From the NCBI GenBank assembly GCA_039630055.1, contig JBCNVN010000001.1, positions 96,001 to 160,000 of the forward strand: 64,000 nt of DNA. The letters run 5' to 3'. Of this stretch, positions 222 through 7,389 are shown in pieces. Each line of letters begins with the position of its first letter. Positions within the stretch are counted from its first letter, which is position 1. The notes beneath the pieces are model-generated. The model had not been told where the DNA came from. It ran no database searches and saw only the letters and a list, made by a program, of their open reading frames with translations. The position numbers and the translations under genes are program-made. Origin of the DNA: Candidatus Caldarchaeales archaeon. GTDB taxonomy: Archaea > Thermoproteota > Nitrososphaeria_A > Caldarchaeales > Wolframiiraptoraceae.

Positions 222-839
222 TTGAAGCAGAAGTTGGGATTAAAGATCTCAAAGATCTTGATACGTAATAGTGATTGTAGAGTTGTAAGGTGGTTGGAGA
301 GTAAAGGGGTTGAAGCAGAATTTAAGATTGTTAAGATAAGTGAGAATACTTCTACACATCTATTAAGATTTCCCAAACCGATAGAGTTTGACAAACAGAT
401 GGATATCCATGGTTCATACATGGTCTTGCCAGGCAACTATCTCTGGATAAATACAGAAAGCTGTACAGCATGTAGAACCTTCTCAAAACTACCTGTAATA
501 ATGAGATCTATATCATATGCTAAATCCTCAGGCATTATCGTAAGATTAATAGTTCCAGGGAGATTATTTCATAGACAGCTTATAGAGTGCTTAGAGAATT
601 CTGGTCTAGAAGTAGAATCAATCTCGATCAGAGAATATGAAGATTATGAGTTGACTGAAAGACAGATGGAGGTTCTCATAACGGCCTTAAAGTTAGGATA
701 TCTAGGAAGTAGGAGAAGCGCAAAGCTGAAAGACATAGCATCCTTTATAGGCTCAGATCCCTCTACAGTCTCACGGATTATTAGAGACGGCATCAAAAAG
801 ATAATAAAAAGAACTTTAGATGAAGAACATATTTATTAG
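222..839 (+). CDS. HTH_10 (bacterio-opsin activator-type) transcriptional regulator with N-terminal CxxC
   Basis: C-terminal LTERQMEVLITALKLGY...KLKDIASFIGSDPSTVSRIIR is a typical HTH_10; the N-terminal domain has ESCTAC. Confidence 0.85.
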   Translation: MKQKLGLKISKILIRNSDCRVVRWLESKGVEAEFKIVKISENTSTHLLRFPKPIEFDKQMDIHGSYMVLPGNYLWINTESCTACRTFSKLPVIMRSISYAKSSGIIVRLIVPGRLFHRQLIECLENSGLEVESISIREYEDYELTERQMEVLITALKLGYLGSRRSAKLKDIASFIGSDPSTVSRIIRDGIKKIIKRTLDEEHIY

Positions 840-843
840 TATA

Positions 844-863
844 TCATACAACATTTTGTATGA
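844..863. promoter_or_regulatory. Perfect inverted repeat TCATACAA-N4-TTGTATGA, candidate operator
   Basis: 8-bp arms read directly from the sequence. It lies immediately upstream of an AT-rich BRE/TATA-like tract (aaaatattat) about 25-30 nt before the subunit II start. Confidence 0.6.
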
Positions 864-895
864 AAATATTATCTTTAATCATGAATAAACATTAA

Positions 896-1474
896 TTGAT
901 GGCACCCCAGATAATTATAGAAGTAGTCTATCTTGTAATAATATCGATAGTCATAGGGTTCATTATAGTCTTCTACATATTGACTCAGAGAGGTAAGAGT
1001 AGAGGTCAGAATTCAAGTGGTGAAGAGCATGGGATAAAGAAGGGTATGGAGAAAGGAGAGAAACGATGGCTGGTCTTCTTATTCATAATAGCTTTGATCG
1101 GAAATATGGTGATGCTGTCTCCACTTCTCCCATCTACGAGATACACTTTATGGTTAGAAGAAAAACCAAAATTAACGATAAAAATAGAAGTGATAAACTA
1201 TGAATTTATACTTCCTGAAAAGCCTATAACTATCCCAGCAGGTACTCCAGTAGAGTTTATAGTAGTATCTCAAGACCTAGTATATGGTTTCGGGGTATTC
1301 AGAAAGGATGGGCTCATGGTATTCCAGATGCAGGTGGTTCCTAAACCATATGAAAATCGAATAGTATGGGTATTCGATGAGCCTGGGTACTATGATATAA
1401 GGTCTACAGAATATAGTGGTCCTAAGCATCCCTACATGTATGTTCCCGATGCAATAAAAGTAGTGGGAGGATGA
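896..1474 (+). CDS. Heme-copper oxidase superfamily subunit II-like protein lacking CuA cysteines
   Basis: Two TM helices plus a cupredoxin fold (ITIPAGTPVEF, PGYYDIR). The CuA motif reads STEYSGPKHPYM instead of CxExCGxxHxxM. Start is TTG 896 or ATG 899. Confidence 0.85.
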   Translation: MMAPQIIIEVVYLVIISIVIGFIIVFYILTQRGKSRGQNSSGEEHGIKKGMEKGEKRWLVFLFIIALIGNMVMLSPLLPSTRYTLWLEEKPKLTIKIEVINYEFILPEKPITIPAGTPVEFIVVSQDLVYGFGVFRKDGLMVFQMQVVPKPYENRIVWVFDEPGYYDIRSTEYSGPKHPYMYVPDAIKVVGG

Positions 1475-1480
1475 GAATGT

Positions 1481-3049
1481 ATGAATGAAGAAGAGAGGAA
1501 GGTTCTCTCGATAAGGTTTGTAGTGATCTCATTGATCTTCTTAGCATTAGCTGGGATTGAAGGAATACTGATGAGGTTTAGAATAGTAAATACTCTTGTA
1601 GAACTCTTTGATGAAAAGCATTTCTACTCTATGATGACAGCCCACCCATTTATCGGAGTATATGGATGGGCTTATATGGCTGTTATGGGTGCATTCTACT
1701 TTCTCGTACCCTATATTCTCAAGAAAGATATCTACAGTAAGAAGGCTGCATACTTGAGTTTCTGGCTGATGATTATAGGTTTGGCAACTGTCTGGACAAC
1801 TACATTTTTAACTCATTATGCACCCCTCTACACTCTCTACTGGCCTATACCGGTGGCATACGATATAATTGGATGGAACATATACTCTATACTCTCTTTT
1901 GGTTTAGGTGTCGCATTGATCTTAGGAGGTGTACTCACATTCTTTGGGAACATGTTTGCTACAATATTCCTATCTCAGCGGCAGACAGATGGAGGATCTG
2001 CCAGCCCATGGTACATAATCAAAGAACTAATTATAACAGCATTCAATCTAGATAAGGTTAGGGCAAATATACTAAGACTACCGCAATATACTTCGAAGGC
2101 CTTCAGTTATCCAGTCTTTGTTGTAGCCGTTTTTAGAGGATGTGTAGATACGACATTAAACGCGTTTGTTATAGGAGGTGTAGGAGTACTCTTGATAGTG
2201 TTTGCTATAGGAAACGTGATCCCGAATCTTTCTATATCCCATACTATACTAGATCCATTAATATACAAGAATATCTTCTGGTGGGGGCTAGACCTTATAG
2301 CTGATGGGAACGTCCTCATCTTCACCGCTGGAACATGGTATCTTCTCGTACCACTACTACTCAATAGGACTTTATACGGAGAGAGTGTTGTGAGAACTGT
2401 TATCCTTGCAGACCTTGTAATCTCTCTCTTCGTCTGGAATCACCATATGCTGGCAGATACTCCTCAGCCCTTAGCTCTACAGATACAAGGTCAGATATTC
2501 ACTTGGGGAGAGCTGCTGACGATGGGGTTGACAATGTTCGCTGTTCTAGCAACGATATGGTATGCGAGACCTGTAAAATATTCTATGCCCTTGAAGTTTA
2601 TTCTCGTATCTATTGTAGGATATGCTGTAGGTGGTTTAGCTGGAATAATACAAGCGAACTATGCATCAAACAGATTCTTCCATAATACTCAGTGGGTTAT
2701 AGGGATCCATGGACATATACAACTGCTTGTAGGGTTATCTTCAACTCTGTTTGCAGCGGTTTATGCTCTCTTCCCATTACTTACAGGTAAGTCGCTTAGT
2801 GAAAGATTGGGAAATGTTCATTTGATACTCTGGACTGTTGGTGGACTGGTGATGGGATTAAGCATGGGGTTGGCTGGAACACAGGGGATGTTGAGGAGAA
2901 CTCTCTACCCGATGGGATTAGGACCTTTCGAACCATATATGAACATAGCGATCATAGGAGCTTTGATGATGGCAACGGCCTTCATAATCTTCCTTGTAAA
3001 TATCATTAGAACGGTAAAGCTTGGCAACCTACTAAAGATACTCTTTTAA
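1481..3049 (+). CDS. Heme-copper oxidase superfamily subunit I, gNOR-like (putative nitric oxide reductase)
   Basis: About 12 TM helices; heme His in MMTAHP, WNHHM, IHGH and GMLRR; helix VI reads FWWGLDLIAD instead of FWxxGHPxVY. Confidence 0.8.
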   Translation: MNEEERKVLSIRFVVISLIFLALAGIEGILMRFRIVNTLVELFDEKHFYSMMTAHPFIGVYGWAYMAVMGAFYFLVPYILKKDIYSKKAAYLSFWLMIIGLATVWTTTFLTHYAPLYTLYWPIPVAYDIIGWNIYSILSFGLGVALILGGVLTFFGNMFATIFLSQRQTDGGSASPWYIIKELIITAFNLDKVRANILRLPQYTSKAFSYPVFVVAVFRGCVDTTLNAFVIGGVGVLLIVFAIGNVIPNLSISHTILDPLIYKNIFWWGLDLIADGNVLIFTAGTWYLLVPLLLNRTLYGESVVRTVILADLVISLFVWNHHMLADTPQPLALQIQGQIFTWGELLTMGLTMFAVLATIWYARPVKYSMPLKFILVSIVGYAVGGLAGIIQANYASNRFFHNTQWVIGIHGHIQLLVGLSSTLFAAVYALFPLLTGKSLSERLGNVHLILWTVGGLVMGLSMGLAGTQGMLRRTLYPMGLGPFEPYMNIAIIGALMMATAFIIFLVNIIRTVKLGNLLKILF

Positions 3050-3237: not shown

Positions 3238-4107
3238 TTGAATGGACAGACCGTGATCTCGAGGGTGCAGAGATGGAAGATTGAAGAAGTCGAGGAATTG
3301 GCAAGTTTAATCGGAAAGCATCGAGTAATCGCTGTCTTTAGTTTATCCGGCTTGAGAACAAACCTAATACATGAGATTCGGAAGAAGCTTAGAGGCTTCT
3401 GCACTATAAGAGTTGCAAAAAAGACCCTCTTTATCAAGGCCGTAGAGCGGGCGGGTAGAAAAGATCTGGCTAAGCTTGTAGAAGATATTAAAGAAAGCGT
3501 TGGGTTCATATTCTCAGATCTTAACATATTCAAGCTTAAAATGCTGCTGGATAAGAATAAGGTACTCATGCATGCTAAAGCAGGAGAGAGATCAGATATA
3601 GATGTAATAGTGCCTGAGATGAATACTGGACTTCCTCCGGGACCTATCTTGAGCGATTTCGGAAAGTTAAAGATACCTACGAGGATCGAGGGAGGTCAGA
3701 TATGGATCGCTAAAGATACTCTAGTAGCTAAGAAAGGTGATGAAATATCAGCTCCTCTGGCCTCACTTCTATCAAGGCTTGATATAAAAGCGGTGATGAA
3801 AGGGATAACGATCGATAAAGGCTATGAAGATGGAGTGATATTATCTGGAAAAGACCTTGAATTAGATCTAGAGATGTTCAAGAATAACATTATAGAGGCC
3901 AGTAGCACAGCCATGAAGTTAGCGTTAGAGATAGGATATGTAACAAGAGAGACTATACAGCCTCTAATAATCAAAGCATATAGAGAGGCTAGGTCTCTCG
4001 CAATTGAATCAGGGTTCCCAGATAAAGAAGTGATAGGAGAGATGATTATCAAGGCTGAAGTAATAGCTAGAAGGCTGGAAGAGTTGATAGAGGCTAAGAG
4101 GACCTAA
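3238..4107 (+). CDS. rpl10: 50S ribosomal protein L10 (P0)
   Basis: WKIEEVEEL, VAKKTL, NTGLPPGPILSDF, KIPTRIEGGQI are typical archaeal P0 motifs; no acidic C-terminal tail. Confidence 0.95.
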   Translation: MNGQTVISRVQRWKIEEVEELASLIGKHRVIAVFSLSGLRTNLIHEIRKKLRGFCTIRVAKKTLFIKAVERAGRKDLAKLVEDIKESVGFIFSDLNIFKLKMLLDKNKVLMHAKAGERSDIDVIVPEMNTGLPPGPILSDFGKLKIPTRIEGGQIWIAKDTLVAKKGDEISAPLASLLSRLDIKAVMKGITIDKGYEDGVILSGKDLELDLEMFKNNIIEASSTAMKLALEIGYVTRETIQPLIIKAYREARSLAIESGFPDKEVIGEMIIKAEVIARRLEELIEAKRT

Positions 4108-4118
4108 CCCTCTATTGA

Positions 4119-6884
4119 TCACTTGGCCAATATCTGGATGATTAGATCGTTGACAGTTTTTCTTAAATCTTCTTCATCGACATCTCTTCCCAAGTTTCCC
4201 TGACCAAGCCTAGATTGTCCACCACCCTTTCCACCAAGCTTTGATGATATCGCATCGGCTAGTCGTCCAGCATGAATTCCTAGATCCTGAGCCTCTTCAC
4301 TAGATACTATAAGCAATTTTGGTTTCCCCACATCGAATGCTATCACGACGCATTTCGGACCCTTTTTCTCCATCAATATATCCGAGATCATGAATGCATA
4401 ATCCCTATCACCCTCTACTTCCCTGGCTACAAATACTTCGATCCCCCCGATTATAGACCGTCTATCGAATAATTCTTGAGCTCTATATTTTGCAACCATT
4501 CTTTCAAGCGAGTTGATCTTCCTCCTCAGTTCTTTAACCTGATCCAATTCTTCCTTTAACTTCTCTAAGATATCTACTGGAGATGATTTAAGAAGTATAG
4601 ATGCCTCATTTATTATTCTATCGTTTTCTTGGAGGTATGGTAAAGCTGATGGACCTGCAGCGAAGATGAGTCTTTCCACACCATCTTGTATTCTCTCCGT
4701 CTTCAATATCTTTATCAATCCTACGTCTTCAGTGTTTTCACAGTGCATTCCACCACATGCTTCTACATCCCAACCTAATATCCCTACAACTCTAATCGTA
4801 GCAGAGGGTACCTCGCCTCCTTGATATAGGGTGAATCCATAAATCCTCTCCGCCTCATTTCTATCCATCCACTTGATGACGACCGGTATCCTACTCATAA
4901 CGATCCTATTCGCTTCCCTCTCTATCTTCTCAATATCTTCTCTGGTCAACCTCTTATGATGGTATATGTCTAATCTAGCTTTATCTGGTTCCTTCTCTGC
5001 ACCGGCTTGCCAAGCATGCTTACCTAAGACCCTTCTCGCAGATCCCAGAATTATATGTGTGGCAGTATGGTGTCTCATCAATGTAAGCCTCCTCTCTCTG
5101 TCTAACTCTGCATCTACTATGGTTCCTACCTCTGGTGTAGGACCCTCGATCTTATGGAGAATTACACCACCACTCAATAGACTGGTCTCGACAACTCTTG
5201 CTTGATTATTTTGACCCCATCTTATGAAACCTATATCGGTGGCTTGACCTCCTCCAGTAGGATAAAACAATGTCTGATCGAGAATTACATAATTATCTAG
5301 AACGCCTATGACCTTTGCCCTGAACTTGAACTCAAAAGGTTGCTCATAGTACAGCTTCCTCGTTGGAGGATAGTTTTTCACTCTTTCCTCTAGAATTTTG
5401 AGCTCATCATGGATTGGAGGTTCAATGGATCTGAGATGTCGTGATGCTACAAGCTCATAGAAGTTCTCGGGGACCGATATTTTTACATCTTCTCTTTCAG
5501 CGATCTGTCTTACAAAATCGGGGGTGAGCCCTCTCTCATCATACATTCTAACCAAGAAATCTACTGGAACCTCTCCATGACTATCCTTCAACCGCTTGAT
5601 CTCTCTCTCAACATAAGTAGCTCCACGGAAGATTGTCTCTTTAAACTTCTTTATCTCAGACTCTATTATCTCGAGAGCTTCATCCCTCATCTCTATGAGA
5701 TGTGGAAAATCCTTTCCCCAGAAGTTTAGCTGTAGATCTACCAGCTCGAGCAGTTTATCAGATGAAGATATGGAGTCTATCAGTCTGTATGCCTTCCTAA
5801 TCAGTAACCTTGCTAGATAGCCTACCTTTACATTTGATGGTACAACCCCCTCACTTATTATAAATGCTATAGACTTTGTGTAATCAAGTAGTGCATAGAC
5901 TTTCTCCAGTGCTGCTATCTCCTCCTCTATAAACCTGAGGGGGATCTCAGATTTTTCTGATATTAGTCTCCTCACTTCAGAGATCGTTTGTCCAGACTTT
6001 GGGATGACGAGAGCCGTATATGGTGAGTATCTCTCGAGAAGCTTTCTATCAGGCTTAGGGAATGGTAGGATCTTCTCAATCCTCGGATAGAGCTCACCAT
6101 ATACTGCATCGAAGCAGCTGGGTGTTCCTTGGCTGAACCATGCAAACCTCTCGATGCCATAACCTGTATCTACAGTTCTTATCGGTAGCTCTATCAACTC
6201 GCTATCAAGTGTCTTATACTGCATAAAGACGAGTGTTGCTAACTCTAGTCCATAAGAGATGGTTTCAAAGCATGGTCCAGCATTTCCGCCACCACTCCAA
6301 ACAGACTCTTTGTAGACTATCTGATCTTCAGGTATGCCGAATTCCTCCATAACATATTCATGATAATATCTTACTGTATCCTCTTTCCAGTAGATCTCCT
6401 TGTCTGGATAGTTGAATGCATGGGCTCCACCCATCTCGAATATCGTTAGATGTCTTCCGAAAGTTAATCCAACCTTGTCTATGTCTACCAGTCTTATACA
6501 TGGCTGACTAATTACTAGGGGGTTGGCTGGGGGTGGGGCTATTCCAGAAGTCACGAAGGGTTGGAAGTCTACGATGCTAGCATCGGTTAAGAACATGTCG
6601 GTCCTCCATCTAGCAACGACTGGATATGGCTTTATCACTGTATGACCTCTCTTCTCGAAGAATCTGAGAAAGGTCTCTCTAGAACCTTTAACGTCAACCT
6701 TCTTCTTTGCTAGACTTCTACCGATAAATTTGTATTCTTCACAAGGTGACTCTCCACAGACTTCTCTATCTAGATCGACTGTCCAAAAATATTCTCCACA
6801 ATACTTACATCTTCTTCTGACGTAACCTCTCTCTTTAAAGAATTCTAGACTATAAACTTCTTCGCTGAACCTCATACCATCCAT
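4119..6884 (-). CDS. alaS: Alanine--tRNA ligase (archaeal type)
   Basis: RRCKYCGEYFWT, PYPVVARWR, QPCIR, GGGNAGP, VDTGYGIER; editing domain HTATH and CGGMH; DHHA1 GGKGGG. Confidence 0.97.
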   Translation of the reverse strand: MDGMRFSEEVYSLEFFKERGYVRRRCKYCGEYFWTVDLDREVCGESPCEEYKFIGRSLAKKKVDVKGSRETFLRFFEKRGHTVIKPYPVVARWRTDMFLTDASIVDFQPFVTSGIAPPPANPLVISQPCIRLVDIDKVGLTFGRHLTIFEMGGAHAFNYPDKEIYWKEDTVRYYHEYVMEEFGIPEDQIVYKESVWSGGGNAGPCFETISYGLELATLVFMQYKTLDSELIELPIRTVDTGYGIERFAWFSQGTPSCFDAVYGELYPRIEKILPFPKPDRKLLERYSPYTALVIPKSGQTISEVRRLISEKSEIPLRFIEEEIAALEKVYALLDYTKSIAFIISEGVVPSNVKVGYLARLLIRKAYRLIDSISSSDKLLELVDLQLNFWGKDFPHLIEMRDEALEIIESEIKKFKETIFRGATYVEREIKRLKDSHGEVPVDFLVRMYDERGLTPDFVRQIAEREDVKISVPENFYELVASRHLRSIEPPIHDELKILEERVKNYPPTRKLYYEQPFEFKFRAKVIGVLDNYVILDQTLFYPTGGGQATDIGFIRWGQNNQARVVETSLLSGGVILHKIEGPTPEVGTIVDAELDRERRLTLMRHHTATHIILGSARRVLGKHAWQAGAEKEPDKARLDIYHHKRLTREDIEKIEREANRIVMSRIPVVIKWMDRNEAERIYGFTLYQGGEVPSATIRVVGILGWDVEACGGMHCENTEDVGLIKILKTERIQDGVERLIFAAGPSALPYLQENDRIINEASILLKSSPVDILEKLKEELDQVKELRRKINSLERMVAKYRAQELFDRRSIIGGIEVFVAREVEGDRDYAFMISDILMEKKGPKCVVIAFDVGKPKLLIVSSEEAQDLGIHAGRLADAISSKLGGKGGGQSRLGQGNLGRDVDEEDLRKTVNDLIIQILAK

Positions 6885-6918
6885 CTAGTGACAACTACTT
6901 ATAGATAAAAATAATCCT

Positions 6919-7233
6919 CTAACCAAAGAGAGCGCTTAATCCTGCTAAAGCCTCTTCTTCTCTCTCTTCTTTCTTCTCTTCTTTCTTTTCAGCTGGTTTT
7001 ACTTCTGGAGCAGGAGCCTGGGCCGCAGAGCTCGGACCTGCCGATATTATAGGAGTAGCTGAAGCCGACTTCAAGACTTCTTCAATATTGATCTCTGAAA
7101 CTGCTGCTACTAGAGATTTAATCCTAACTTCATCTGGAGTGATCCCGGCGGCTGATAGGACCCTCTTCACATTCTCTTCATTAATCGGCTTACCAGCCTT
7201 GTGGAGAAGTAAGACTGTATATATGTACTCCAT
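6919..7233 (-). CDS. rpl12: 50S ribosomal protein L12 (archaeal P1)
   Basis: [19 protein letters not shown]...[13 protein letters not shown]. Start moved to the MEYIY Met (the ORF track begins at 7266). Confidence 0.96.
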
Positions 7234-7389
7234 CTCTAGTCTAACATAGTCTAGGTTAGCCTGCATTTAAAGATTATCCAGACCACCATTTTATACATCT
7301 CTATTTAATCGAGAATAGTTAGCCCTCAAATTTTTGTGAATATTGAATAGTAATATCGTATATAAACTGGACCTAGTCTATAGATTGGC

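Follow-up and report, generated by a model that had tools for sequence, protein, structure and literature searches.

The question raised by the locus described here is whether a gene that automatic annotation would call a cytochrome c oxidase encodes an oxygen reductase at all. The gene lies near the start of a 64,000-nucleotide stretch of DNA (positions 96,001–160,000 of contig JBCNVN010000001.1, assembly GCA_039630055.1; the whole stretch is hereafter called the window) from a Candidatus Caldarchaeales archaeon of hot springs, and it encodes subunit I of a heme-copper enzyme, with the gene for subunit II directly upstream (Table 1). The protein almost certainly belongs to the gNOR family and is a new archaeal member of a family that has already been published for bacteria and archaea (Murali et al. 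2024, PMC11214002). In the available text of that paper, gNOR is presented as the first heme-copper family in which an active-site histidine is replaced, namely by aspartate, and it is described as having a cupredoxin subunit devoid of CuA and as possibly oxidizing quinol; its 156 members in GTDB genomes come from both bacteria and archaea and are commonest in sulfidic settings. A full mechanistic reading, in which the enzyme would be a quinol-dependent nitric oxide (NO) reductase serving detoxification, is given a probability of roughly 0.6.

The original prediction, drawn up from the letters of the window, had named the loss of the His-Tyr cofactor together with an Asp in place of a CuB-ligand His as the hallmark of gNOR, and the texts of PMC11214002 and PMC8756737, as far as available, describe the family in the same way. 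The latter tabulates the gNOR active-site residue as D, gives Sulfurimonas, Sulfurovum, and Persephonella as the taxa, and cites Sievert et al. 2008 and Hemp & Gennis 2008 for the family; similarly, Damo_1118-1119 of Ca. M. oxyfera are named gNOR in the available part of PMC6094997. The description of the family as best known from bacteria is fair, but archaeal members were already reported in the accessible text of PMC11214002, and the find is therefore less new than had been implied. No paper linking gNOR to Aigarchaeota was found in a search that covered the literature outside the supplementary taxon lists of PMC11214002, which may include the lineage.

Residues 10–496 of subunit I match the COX1 profile (PF00115) with E = 2.3e-61 in a Pfam profile search, and all matches to the NCBIfam oxidase models are sub-threshold. 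An AlphaFold2 model of the subunit (predicted local distance difference test, pLDDT, 82.6; predicted template-modelling score, pTM, 0.86) contains 12 helices and reaches in Foldseek a template-modelling (TM) score of 0.80 to subunit I of the aa3 and bo3 oxidases, a value that concerns the overall fold; among solved structures matched at E <= 0.001, the best pairwise scores are those of A-family chains. In helix VI, the predicted motif FWWGLDLIAD is indeed found, its start having been put one codon late at 2279 instead of 2276. The active-site columns were counted in a MAFFT alignment of 41 gNOR-type family members with 58 other heme-copper proteins, in which all 41 family rows have Asp in the D271 column, against His in 54 of the 55 filled outgroup rows; in the D275 column, Asp is again constant within the family (41 of 41), and the 55 outgroup rows show Tyr in 45 cases and Asn in 8. 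The claim that the positions of the CuB-ligand His and of the cross-linked Tyr are both Asp is thus borne out in every family row of this alignment, the register not being unanimous across aligners. The helix VI register of D271 and D275 is likely the one given by MAFFT, which is preferred because of the conserved KN...W anchor and because the i, i+4, i+8 spacing of W267, D271, and D275 is the same as that of W, H, and Y in the oxidases; no gap separates the shared K/Q-N/H...W anchor from the motif in that alignment, and the loss of His and Tyr from helix VI holds under all three alignments (MAFFT, HMMER, and hhalign).

The remaining ligands are intact, as had also been claimed. H55 is present in all 41 family rows and in 44 of 44 filled outgroup rows; the helix VII pair, H321 and H322, occupies its columns in 41 of 41 family rows and in 52 and 55, respectively, of 56 outgroup rows; and H410 and H412 occur in 41 of 41 family rows and in 57 and 58 of 58 outgroup rows. 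A His-to-Glu change in a heme ligand of gNOR, which appears in the available text of a preprint (10.1101/592808), is contradicted by H55, H410, and H412 in 41 of 41 rows. Moreover, the column of E344 holds Glu in all family rows, compared with 1 of 58 outgroups, most of which have Ile, Val, or Leu there; to judge from its helix position, E344 is probably near the metal site. On helix VIII, the family does not vary at T341, E344, and T347 and has either Thr or Ser at position 351.

Conservation of these residues extends across the family. A word-indexed search returned 2682 homologues, the best 120 of which span 87% to 48% identity in archaea and bacteria. The pattern WWG[LIVM]D..ADG is present in each of these 120 best protein homologues and in the 80 best genome loci (80/80), with no His within −10 to +18 residues of the helix VI motif in any of the 120 homologues; the motif is conserved far beyond chance. 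An exhaustive comparison with 1.84 billion representatives sharply separates the family, none of whose members scores below 394 bits, from the next full-length protein, which reaches 114 bits with an identity of 28%. An alignment of 20 sequences leaves W267, W268, G269, L270, D271, A274, D275, and G276 invariant, together with H55, H321, H322, H401, H410, and H412; across the 41 members, which belong to two domains, 76 residues are invariant, all heme ligands included, and E27, R219, D223, E344, Q391, and Q404 are family-specific invariants to which nothing corresponds in the rest of the heme-copper families. When species genomes were scanned with the motif codons, at least 116 loci were obtained, and about 120 motif-scan loci (L088 upward) each have a 38–77% identical homologue by blastp, such loci being circular evidence for the motif itself. 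The closest named metagenome-assembled genomes (MAGs) among the loci listed are those of Ca. Geocrenenecus, at 84–87% identity; a Methylomirabilota MAG homologue is 64% identical to the window protein, and Sulfurimonas MAG proteins are 78–81% identical to the Sulfurovum protein.

The ratio of nonsynonymous to synonymous substitution rates (dN/dS) is 0.05–0.08 for subunit I against four relatives and 0.13 for subunit II against one relative, both being rough values with dS saturated at 1.2–1.7; subunit I is under strong purifying selection. In 172 of 195 loci, subunit I is directly preceded by a subunit II homologue in the same orientation, the set of loci including about 10 contigs twice. The loss of two canonical catalytic residues and of all CuA ligands could be taken to indicate a degenerate, non-catalytic oxidase remnant, yet such a reading is extremely improbable in view of the low dN/dS of subunit I, the 76 residues and all heme ligands held invariant over two domains, the invariance of the replacement residues themselves, and the retention of the two-gene operon.

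Subunit II, whose start is possibly the ATG at 899, matches the CoxB model TIGR02866 with E = 3.2e-9, below the cut-off. The best solved match of its family profile A2 is subunit II of Thermus thermophilus ba3 oxidase (1ehk_B, 1.7e-10), followed by subunit II of Escherichia coli bo3 oxidase (2.5e-7). In the alignment, Tyr130, Ser170, and Ser174 stand where ba3 has the CuA ligands His, Cys, and Cys, and the Met is retained as Met181. As the CuA ligands are replaced, CuA cannot form, and quinol is therefore the likely donor, as in bo3. An identity as an A- or B-family O2 reductase was rejected, there being neither a His-Tyr cofactor (GHPxVY) nor a three-His CuB, and that as an A- or B-family cytochrome c oxidase was rejected on the missing CuA centre of subunit II.

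The phylogeny that had been suggested as a check does not place the protein inside the canonical A- or B-family oxidases with an alternative His/Tyr; it has a clade of its own with a support of 100. The tree is a quick IQ-TREE run (LG+C20 with posterior mean site frequencies, PMSF) of 70 rows with database representatives as outgroups, from which 14 outgroup rows had been removed as fragmentary and 15 family rows as redundant. The 26 proteins that bear the motif all fall into a single clade, which has a stem length of 1.10 and the above support from the Shimodaira–Hasegawa-like approximate likelihood ratio test (SH-aLRT). Within it, the window protein is sister to that of an Aigarchaeota MAG (86% identity) in a Caldarchaeales group, outward from which follow a pair of Bathyarchaeia and Methylomirabilota and then Geothermarchaeota and Thermoprotei; a second subclade comprises Persephonella, Sulfurovum, Nitratifractor, Sulfurospirillum, Bacteroidota, and others. 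The type-strain gNOR genes (Ca. M. oxyfera Damo_1118-1119, S. denitrificans, and P. marina) are not among the genome-scan loci listed. Four outgroups were labelled through solved structures, of which P0226 is a ba3-type B-family protein (6e-99), P0197 a cbb3-type C-family protein, and P0151 and P0214 are distant ba3-like proteins. The A family is separate, and the nearest neighbours of the motif clade are long branches that include C-family rows; a long-branch warning was raised for rows in this neighbouring group and not for the attachment of the motif clade. The ba3-like rows join at supports of 83–95, a deep placement that comes from a quick tree with long branches. P0152, on one of the long branches near the gNOR clade, represents a second lineage whose metal site is rebuilt: its helix VI, WVALRFYLQG, has Arg at the His position and Gln at the Tyr position of the alignment, and the HH of helix VII is QH.

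Compared with described gNOR, the window enzyme has no family-defining difference: Asp is found at the helix VI His and Tyr places with the two helix VII His and three heme His kept, subunit II is a cupredoxin without CuA, and the clade is shared with the Sulfurovum, Sulfurimonas-family, Persephonella, and Methylomirabilota proteins. Local differences are the thermophilic Caldarchaeales host, in which it is the sole heme-copper enzyme and the search for a nitrite reductase was negative, an HTH_10 regulator in the place of the Rrf2 or Crp/Fnr regulators of bacteria, and the position of the cassette inside an L11-L1-P0 string. With the T. thermophilus ba3 oxidase, the enzyme shares a two-subunit core, the closest solved relative of its subunit II profile, and a Ser/Thr that replaces the K-channel Lys (T/S351, an alignment reading), and true ba3-like rows (P0180 and P0226) stand on the family's side of the tree. 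However, ba3 has a GHPxVY His-Tyr cofactor, three CuB His, and CuA and reduces O2, with all three features replaced here, and its subunit I is absent from the subunit I matches at E <= 0.001, among which 7deg_A (5.2e-5) is the sole B-type match. Likeness to E. coli bo3 lies in the CuA-less cupredoxin subunit II, quinol as the presumed donor, and a heme O synthase in the genome, whereas bo3 belongs to the A family, pumps protons, and reduces O2 at a site in which CuB and the His-Tyr cofactor are intact.

Among NO reductases, the cNOR and qNOR enzymes (NorB; 3o0r and 3ayf-type) have in common with the window enzyme the presumed reaction, the lack of a Tyr cofactor, and a carboxylate-ligated non-heme site, and qNOR shares in addition quinol as the presumed donor. 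However, these enzymes, whose NorB-type sequence is related to the C family, keep three His and add a Glu, whereas the window enzyme is without the helix VI His; the place of the cupredoxin is taken in them by a cytochrome c subunit or a fused N-terminal domain. A cNOR or qNOR identity was rejected, since no NorB structure occurs among the solved matches of subunit I, the helix VI His is missing, and the partner is a cupredoxin. The sNOR, bNOR, and eNOR enzymes are derived from O2 reductases by loss of the Tyr; unlike the window enzyme, they keep all three metal-site His and have, according to the available text of PMC11214002, CuA-type subunits and conserved proton channels. The same text lists such channels for eNOR, bNOR, sNOR, and nNOR only, which implies that none is completely conserved in gNOR.

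In the mechanism proposed from these comparisons, each of the two genes supplies one subunit of a heme-copper oxidoreductase of the gNOR family. Subunit I would keep a bis-His low-spin heme (H55 and H412) and a His-ligated high-spin heme (H410), and the non-heme site would be rebuilt around H321, H322, and Asp271, with Asp275 and probably Glu344 nearby, in replacement of three His and the His-Tyr cofactor. The site so rebuilt would be unable to carry out four-electron O2 chemistry and would resemble the His/carboxylate FeB site of NO reductases. Electrons would most likely be supplied by membrane quinol and not by cytochrome c or a copper protein, and the most likely reaction would be 2 NO + 2 e- + 2 H+ -> N2O + H2O. 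The NO removed would most likely originate from neighbours or hot-spring chemistry and not from a denitrification chain of the host itself, and the HTH_10 regulator would probably control the cassette through the palindrome upstream of subunit II.

The host assembly measures 1.54 Mb and is 91.9% complete, and its single PF00115 match represents the sole heme-copper enzyme found there. A listing of sequencing runs gave three DNA entries from a single study and no RNA entry. The genome check for nirK, nirS, and nosZ that had been recommended was carried out and found none: profile searches of this 91.9%-complete assembly gave no nirK, nirS, or narG, and no match to TIGR04246 for clade-II nosZ, a model that the controls matched below the cut-off only; the PF18764 nosZ profile was silent in control genomes too, and its blank result is void. 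As no nirK, nirS, narG, or nosZ and no other heme-copper enzyme were found, NO detoxification is favoured over denitrification. A CtaB heme O synthase is encoded in the host genome (255 bits, above the cut-off), and no PF02628 match for CtaA was found there, the Sulfolobus control being silent too, such that an archaeal-type heme A synthase could be missed. A gene for a cytochrome bd-like quinol oxidase is present, and a quinol pool is therefore implied. The matches resembling cytochrome bd subunit I are split over two or three neighbouring segments at the very start of a contig (G000:C11:65-1536), which are possibly a divergent bd-type quinol oxidase or tandem fragments.

These gene contents also bear on the reading as a low-efficiency terminal O2 reductase or an O2 scavenger that would protect an anaerobe from oxygen traces. 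Such a role could be supported by the position of the enzyme as the only heme-copper enzyme of the genome and by the heme O synthase gene, and pipelines as well as a Caldarchaeales genome paper (PMC10547907, in its available text) read such genes as cytochrome c oxidase. It is nevertheless quite unlikely, because the His-Tyr cofactor, which is required for O2 reduction according to the accessible text of PMC11214002, is absent in every member, one CuB ligand and CuA are lost, and the cytochrome bd-like oxidase is already in the genome for that job. An energy-conserving terminal reductase is a further alternative, in which an otherwise fermentative, tungsten-dependent-type thermophile would respire exogenous NO or another small oxidant at the site formed by heme, two His, two Asp, and Glu344, with proton uptake through T341-E344-T347. 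This role is rather unlikely; were it true, the metal and the chemistry of the site would differ from those of every characterized NO reductase.

Among relatives of the host, PF00115 matches occur in all seven other genomes of the genus, being full-length in five (204–216 bits), fragmented in G001, and sub-threshold in G007, and no canonical oxidase-type match was found in the seven. Heme-copper genes above the family cut-off were found in none of six and none of three genomes of two sister genera (g2 and g5), and a third (g4) gave one sub-threshold match in five genomes. Other families of the order have A-type oxidases and NirK-like genes (140–166 bits, below the cut-off); the gNOR-type enzyme is also found in some of their genomes (G025, G028, G039, and G009), in the first three of which it is accompanied by NirK-like genes.

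The neighbourhoods of the enzyme in other genomes were counted as genes within 3.5 kb in the 195 loci, with 156 bacterial and 37 archaeal loci as denominators. A regulator of the Rrf2 family is found upstream in 30 of the 156 bacterial loci and one of the Crp/Fnr family in 16 of the 156; in addition, a hemerythrin-HHE protein with a weak likeness to YtfE is encoded next to subunit I, downstream and in the same orientation, in 30 of the 195 loci (25 bacterial and 5 archaeal; e.g., L052 7781-8356), mainly in Chloroflexota and in a few Bathyarchaeota and Thermoproteota. Genes for NO stress are usually accompanied by Rrf2 regulators (NsrR), Crp/Fnr regulators (Dnr/NnrR), and di-iron proteins of the YtfE type. 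The bacterial context resembles that of nitrosative-stress genes and would be consistent with a role in NO turnover. In 20 loci, 18 of them from Campylobacterota, subunit I is followed in the same orientation by a 201-aa protein for which Pfam gives no match (e.g., L180 3446-4051), possibly a lineage-specific third subunit or an assembly factor.

The chief alternative to NO reduction retains the gNOR family and assigns to its site of heme, two His, and two or three carboxylates another chemistry of use to anaerobes in hot, sulfidic places, such as two-electron scavenging of peroxide or low O2, an N2O or NO dismutation-type reaction, or the use of another small oxidant. It is a real but secondary possibility: the family occurs in Anaerolineae, Bathyarchaeia, Methanomethylicia, and Bacteroidales, which are generally regarded as anaerobes, the enzyme stands alone in its genus without any nitrite reductase found, and the invariants E27, R219, D223, E344, Q391, and Q404 are specific to the family. 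Moreover, the available text of PMC11214002 links gNOR to sulfidic environments and contains no purified or assayed member. Against this alternative, the regulators beside bacterial members come from families that include classic NO sensors, NirK-like genes accompany the enzyme in the three genomes of the same order named above, and a synthetic, bioinorganic mimic of the gNOR site reduces NO (PMC11214002, available text).

The reading as a quinol-dependent NO reductase for detoxification is itself weakened by several points. In the available text of PMC11214002, the function of gNOR is termed proposed; the features of the sequence, its place in the family, its conservation, the purifying selection, and the context of the genes are observations, from which we infer the metal of the non-heme site and likewise the substrate, the donor, and the regulation. 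Two of the three alignment methods place the Asp residues off the exact His/Tyr positions, as HMMER against Bacillus subtilis aa3-600 sets L270 and A274 at these places and hhalign of family profile A1 against A3 sets N277 and F281 there, with 6- and 5-residue gaps. The Rrf2, Crp/Fnr, and hemerythrin neighbours match superfamily-level or sub-threshold models only, and they are absent from this window and present in a minority of loci; the host genome, incomplete at 92%, yielded no hemerythrin gene. Finally, no source of NO was detected in the host, NirK-like genes are found in none of the eight genus genomes, and a respiratory role is unsupported.

Correct recognition of the enzyme has consequences for how related genomes are read. 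It had been foreseen that an automatic pipeline would mislabel it, and close homologues are in fact named "cbb3-type cytochrome c oxidase subunit I" at NCBI and "cytochrome c oxidase subunit 1" at JGI; with such cytochrome c oxidase labels, genome papers infer aerobic respiration and report no NO reductase. For instance, a Caldarchaeales study infers aerobic respiration from cox genes and reports, in its available text, no NO reductase in any MAG and nirK in the MAG of Ca. Pelearchaeum maunauluense (PMC10547907). That MAG encodes a gNOR-type subunit I that is 72% identical to the window protein (L011, 6001-7581). A correct reading alters what is inferred about how Caldarchaeales, Bathyarchaeia, Anaerolineae, and others metabolize oxygen and nitrogen. 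The gNOR family is among the last heme-copper families without a purified member and the only one reported with an active-site His replaced, and this version, compact with its two genes and of thermophilic origin, would be a sensible choice for expression and structural studies.

Table 1. Position of the enzyme genes, their active-site residues, and the associated regulatory features within the window.
Feature	Position	Strand	Basis or remark
gNOR-type heme-copper subunit I, 522 aa, about 12 membrane helices	1481..3049	+	Open reading frame, COX1 match
H55 (in TAHPF), helix II low-spin heme ligand by homology	1643..1645	+	Invariant
Helix VI motif FWWGLDLIAD	2276..2305	+	D271 (2291-2293) at CuB-His place; D275 (2303-2305) at Tyr place
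H321-H322 in NHHM (2438-2449), helix VII CuB/FeB-binding pair in relatives	2441..2446	+	
E344, family-specific invariant carboxylate	2510..2512	+	Helix VIII polar stripe T341-E344-T347-T/S351
H410 and H412 in IHGHI (2705-2719), helix X high-spin and low-spin heme ligands	2708..2716	+	
Subunit II: N-terminal membrane helices and cupredoxin domain without CuA ligands	896..1474	+	Profile matches
HTH_10-family transcription regulator, 205 aa, likely cassette regulator	222..839	+	PF04967, E 6.7e-11, residues 144-196
Perfect 7+4+7 inverted repeat CATACAA-CATT-TTGTATG, candidate operator	845..862	.	34 bp upstream of subunit II start

The third gene of the cassette encodes the HTH_10 regulator. Of 37 archaeal loci, 17 have a homologue of it no more than 3.5 kb away from the enzyme genes; of 156 bacterial loci, none does. 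Cys19 and Cys81-x2-Cys84 in its N-terminal domain are conserved across Nitrososphaerota and Geothermarchaeota homologues; these cysteines may form a metal or Fe-S sensing site, and the regulator may be an archaeal stand-in for the bacterial Rrf2 and Crp/Fnr regulators. The inverted repeat is probably its operator, and a palindrome of the form (T/C)A/GCAA-N-TTG(C/T)A is aligned in six of six closest relatives (the window, L001, L002, L003, L004, and L039).

The three-gene cassette (222-3049) is flanked on the same strand by the genes for Spt5, L11, and L1 upstream, on G000:C1 (L202 3374-9107), and P0 downstream. This position between L1 and P0 is repeated in L001, L003, and L004, and in L039 the L11-L1 side alone is visible, the contig ending before P0. 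In three sister genera without the enzyme, the distance from L1 to P0 is 50–110 bp; as the two genes are nearly adjacent there, the cassette of about 3.1 kb is an insertion specific to the genus-level clade. Its guanine-plus-cytosine fraction is 0.389, compared with 0.390 for the window, and the base composition shows no sign of recent transfer, the cassette being ameliorated. Further downstream, P0 (3238-4107, +) is followed by the genes for alanyl-tRNA synthetase (4119-6884, −) and P1/L12 (6919-7266, −), and the customary P0-P1 pairing is also broken in this part of the window (3238-7266).

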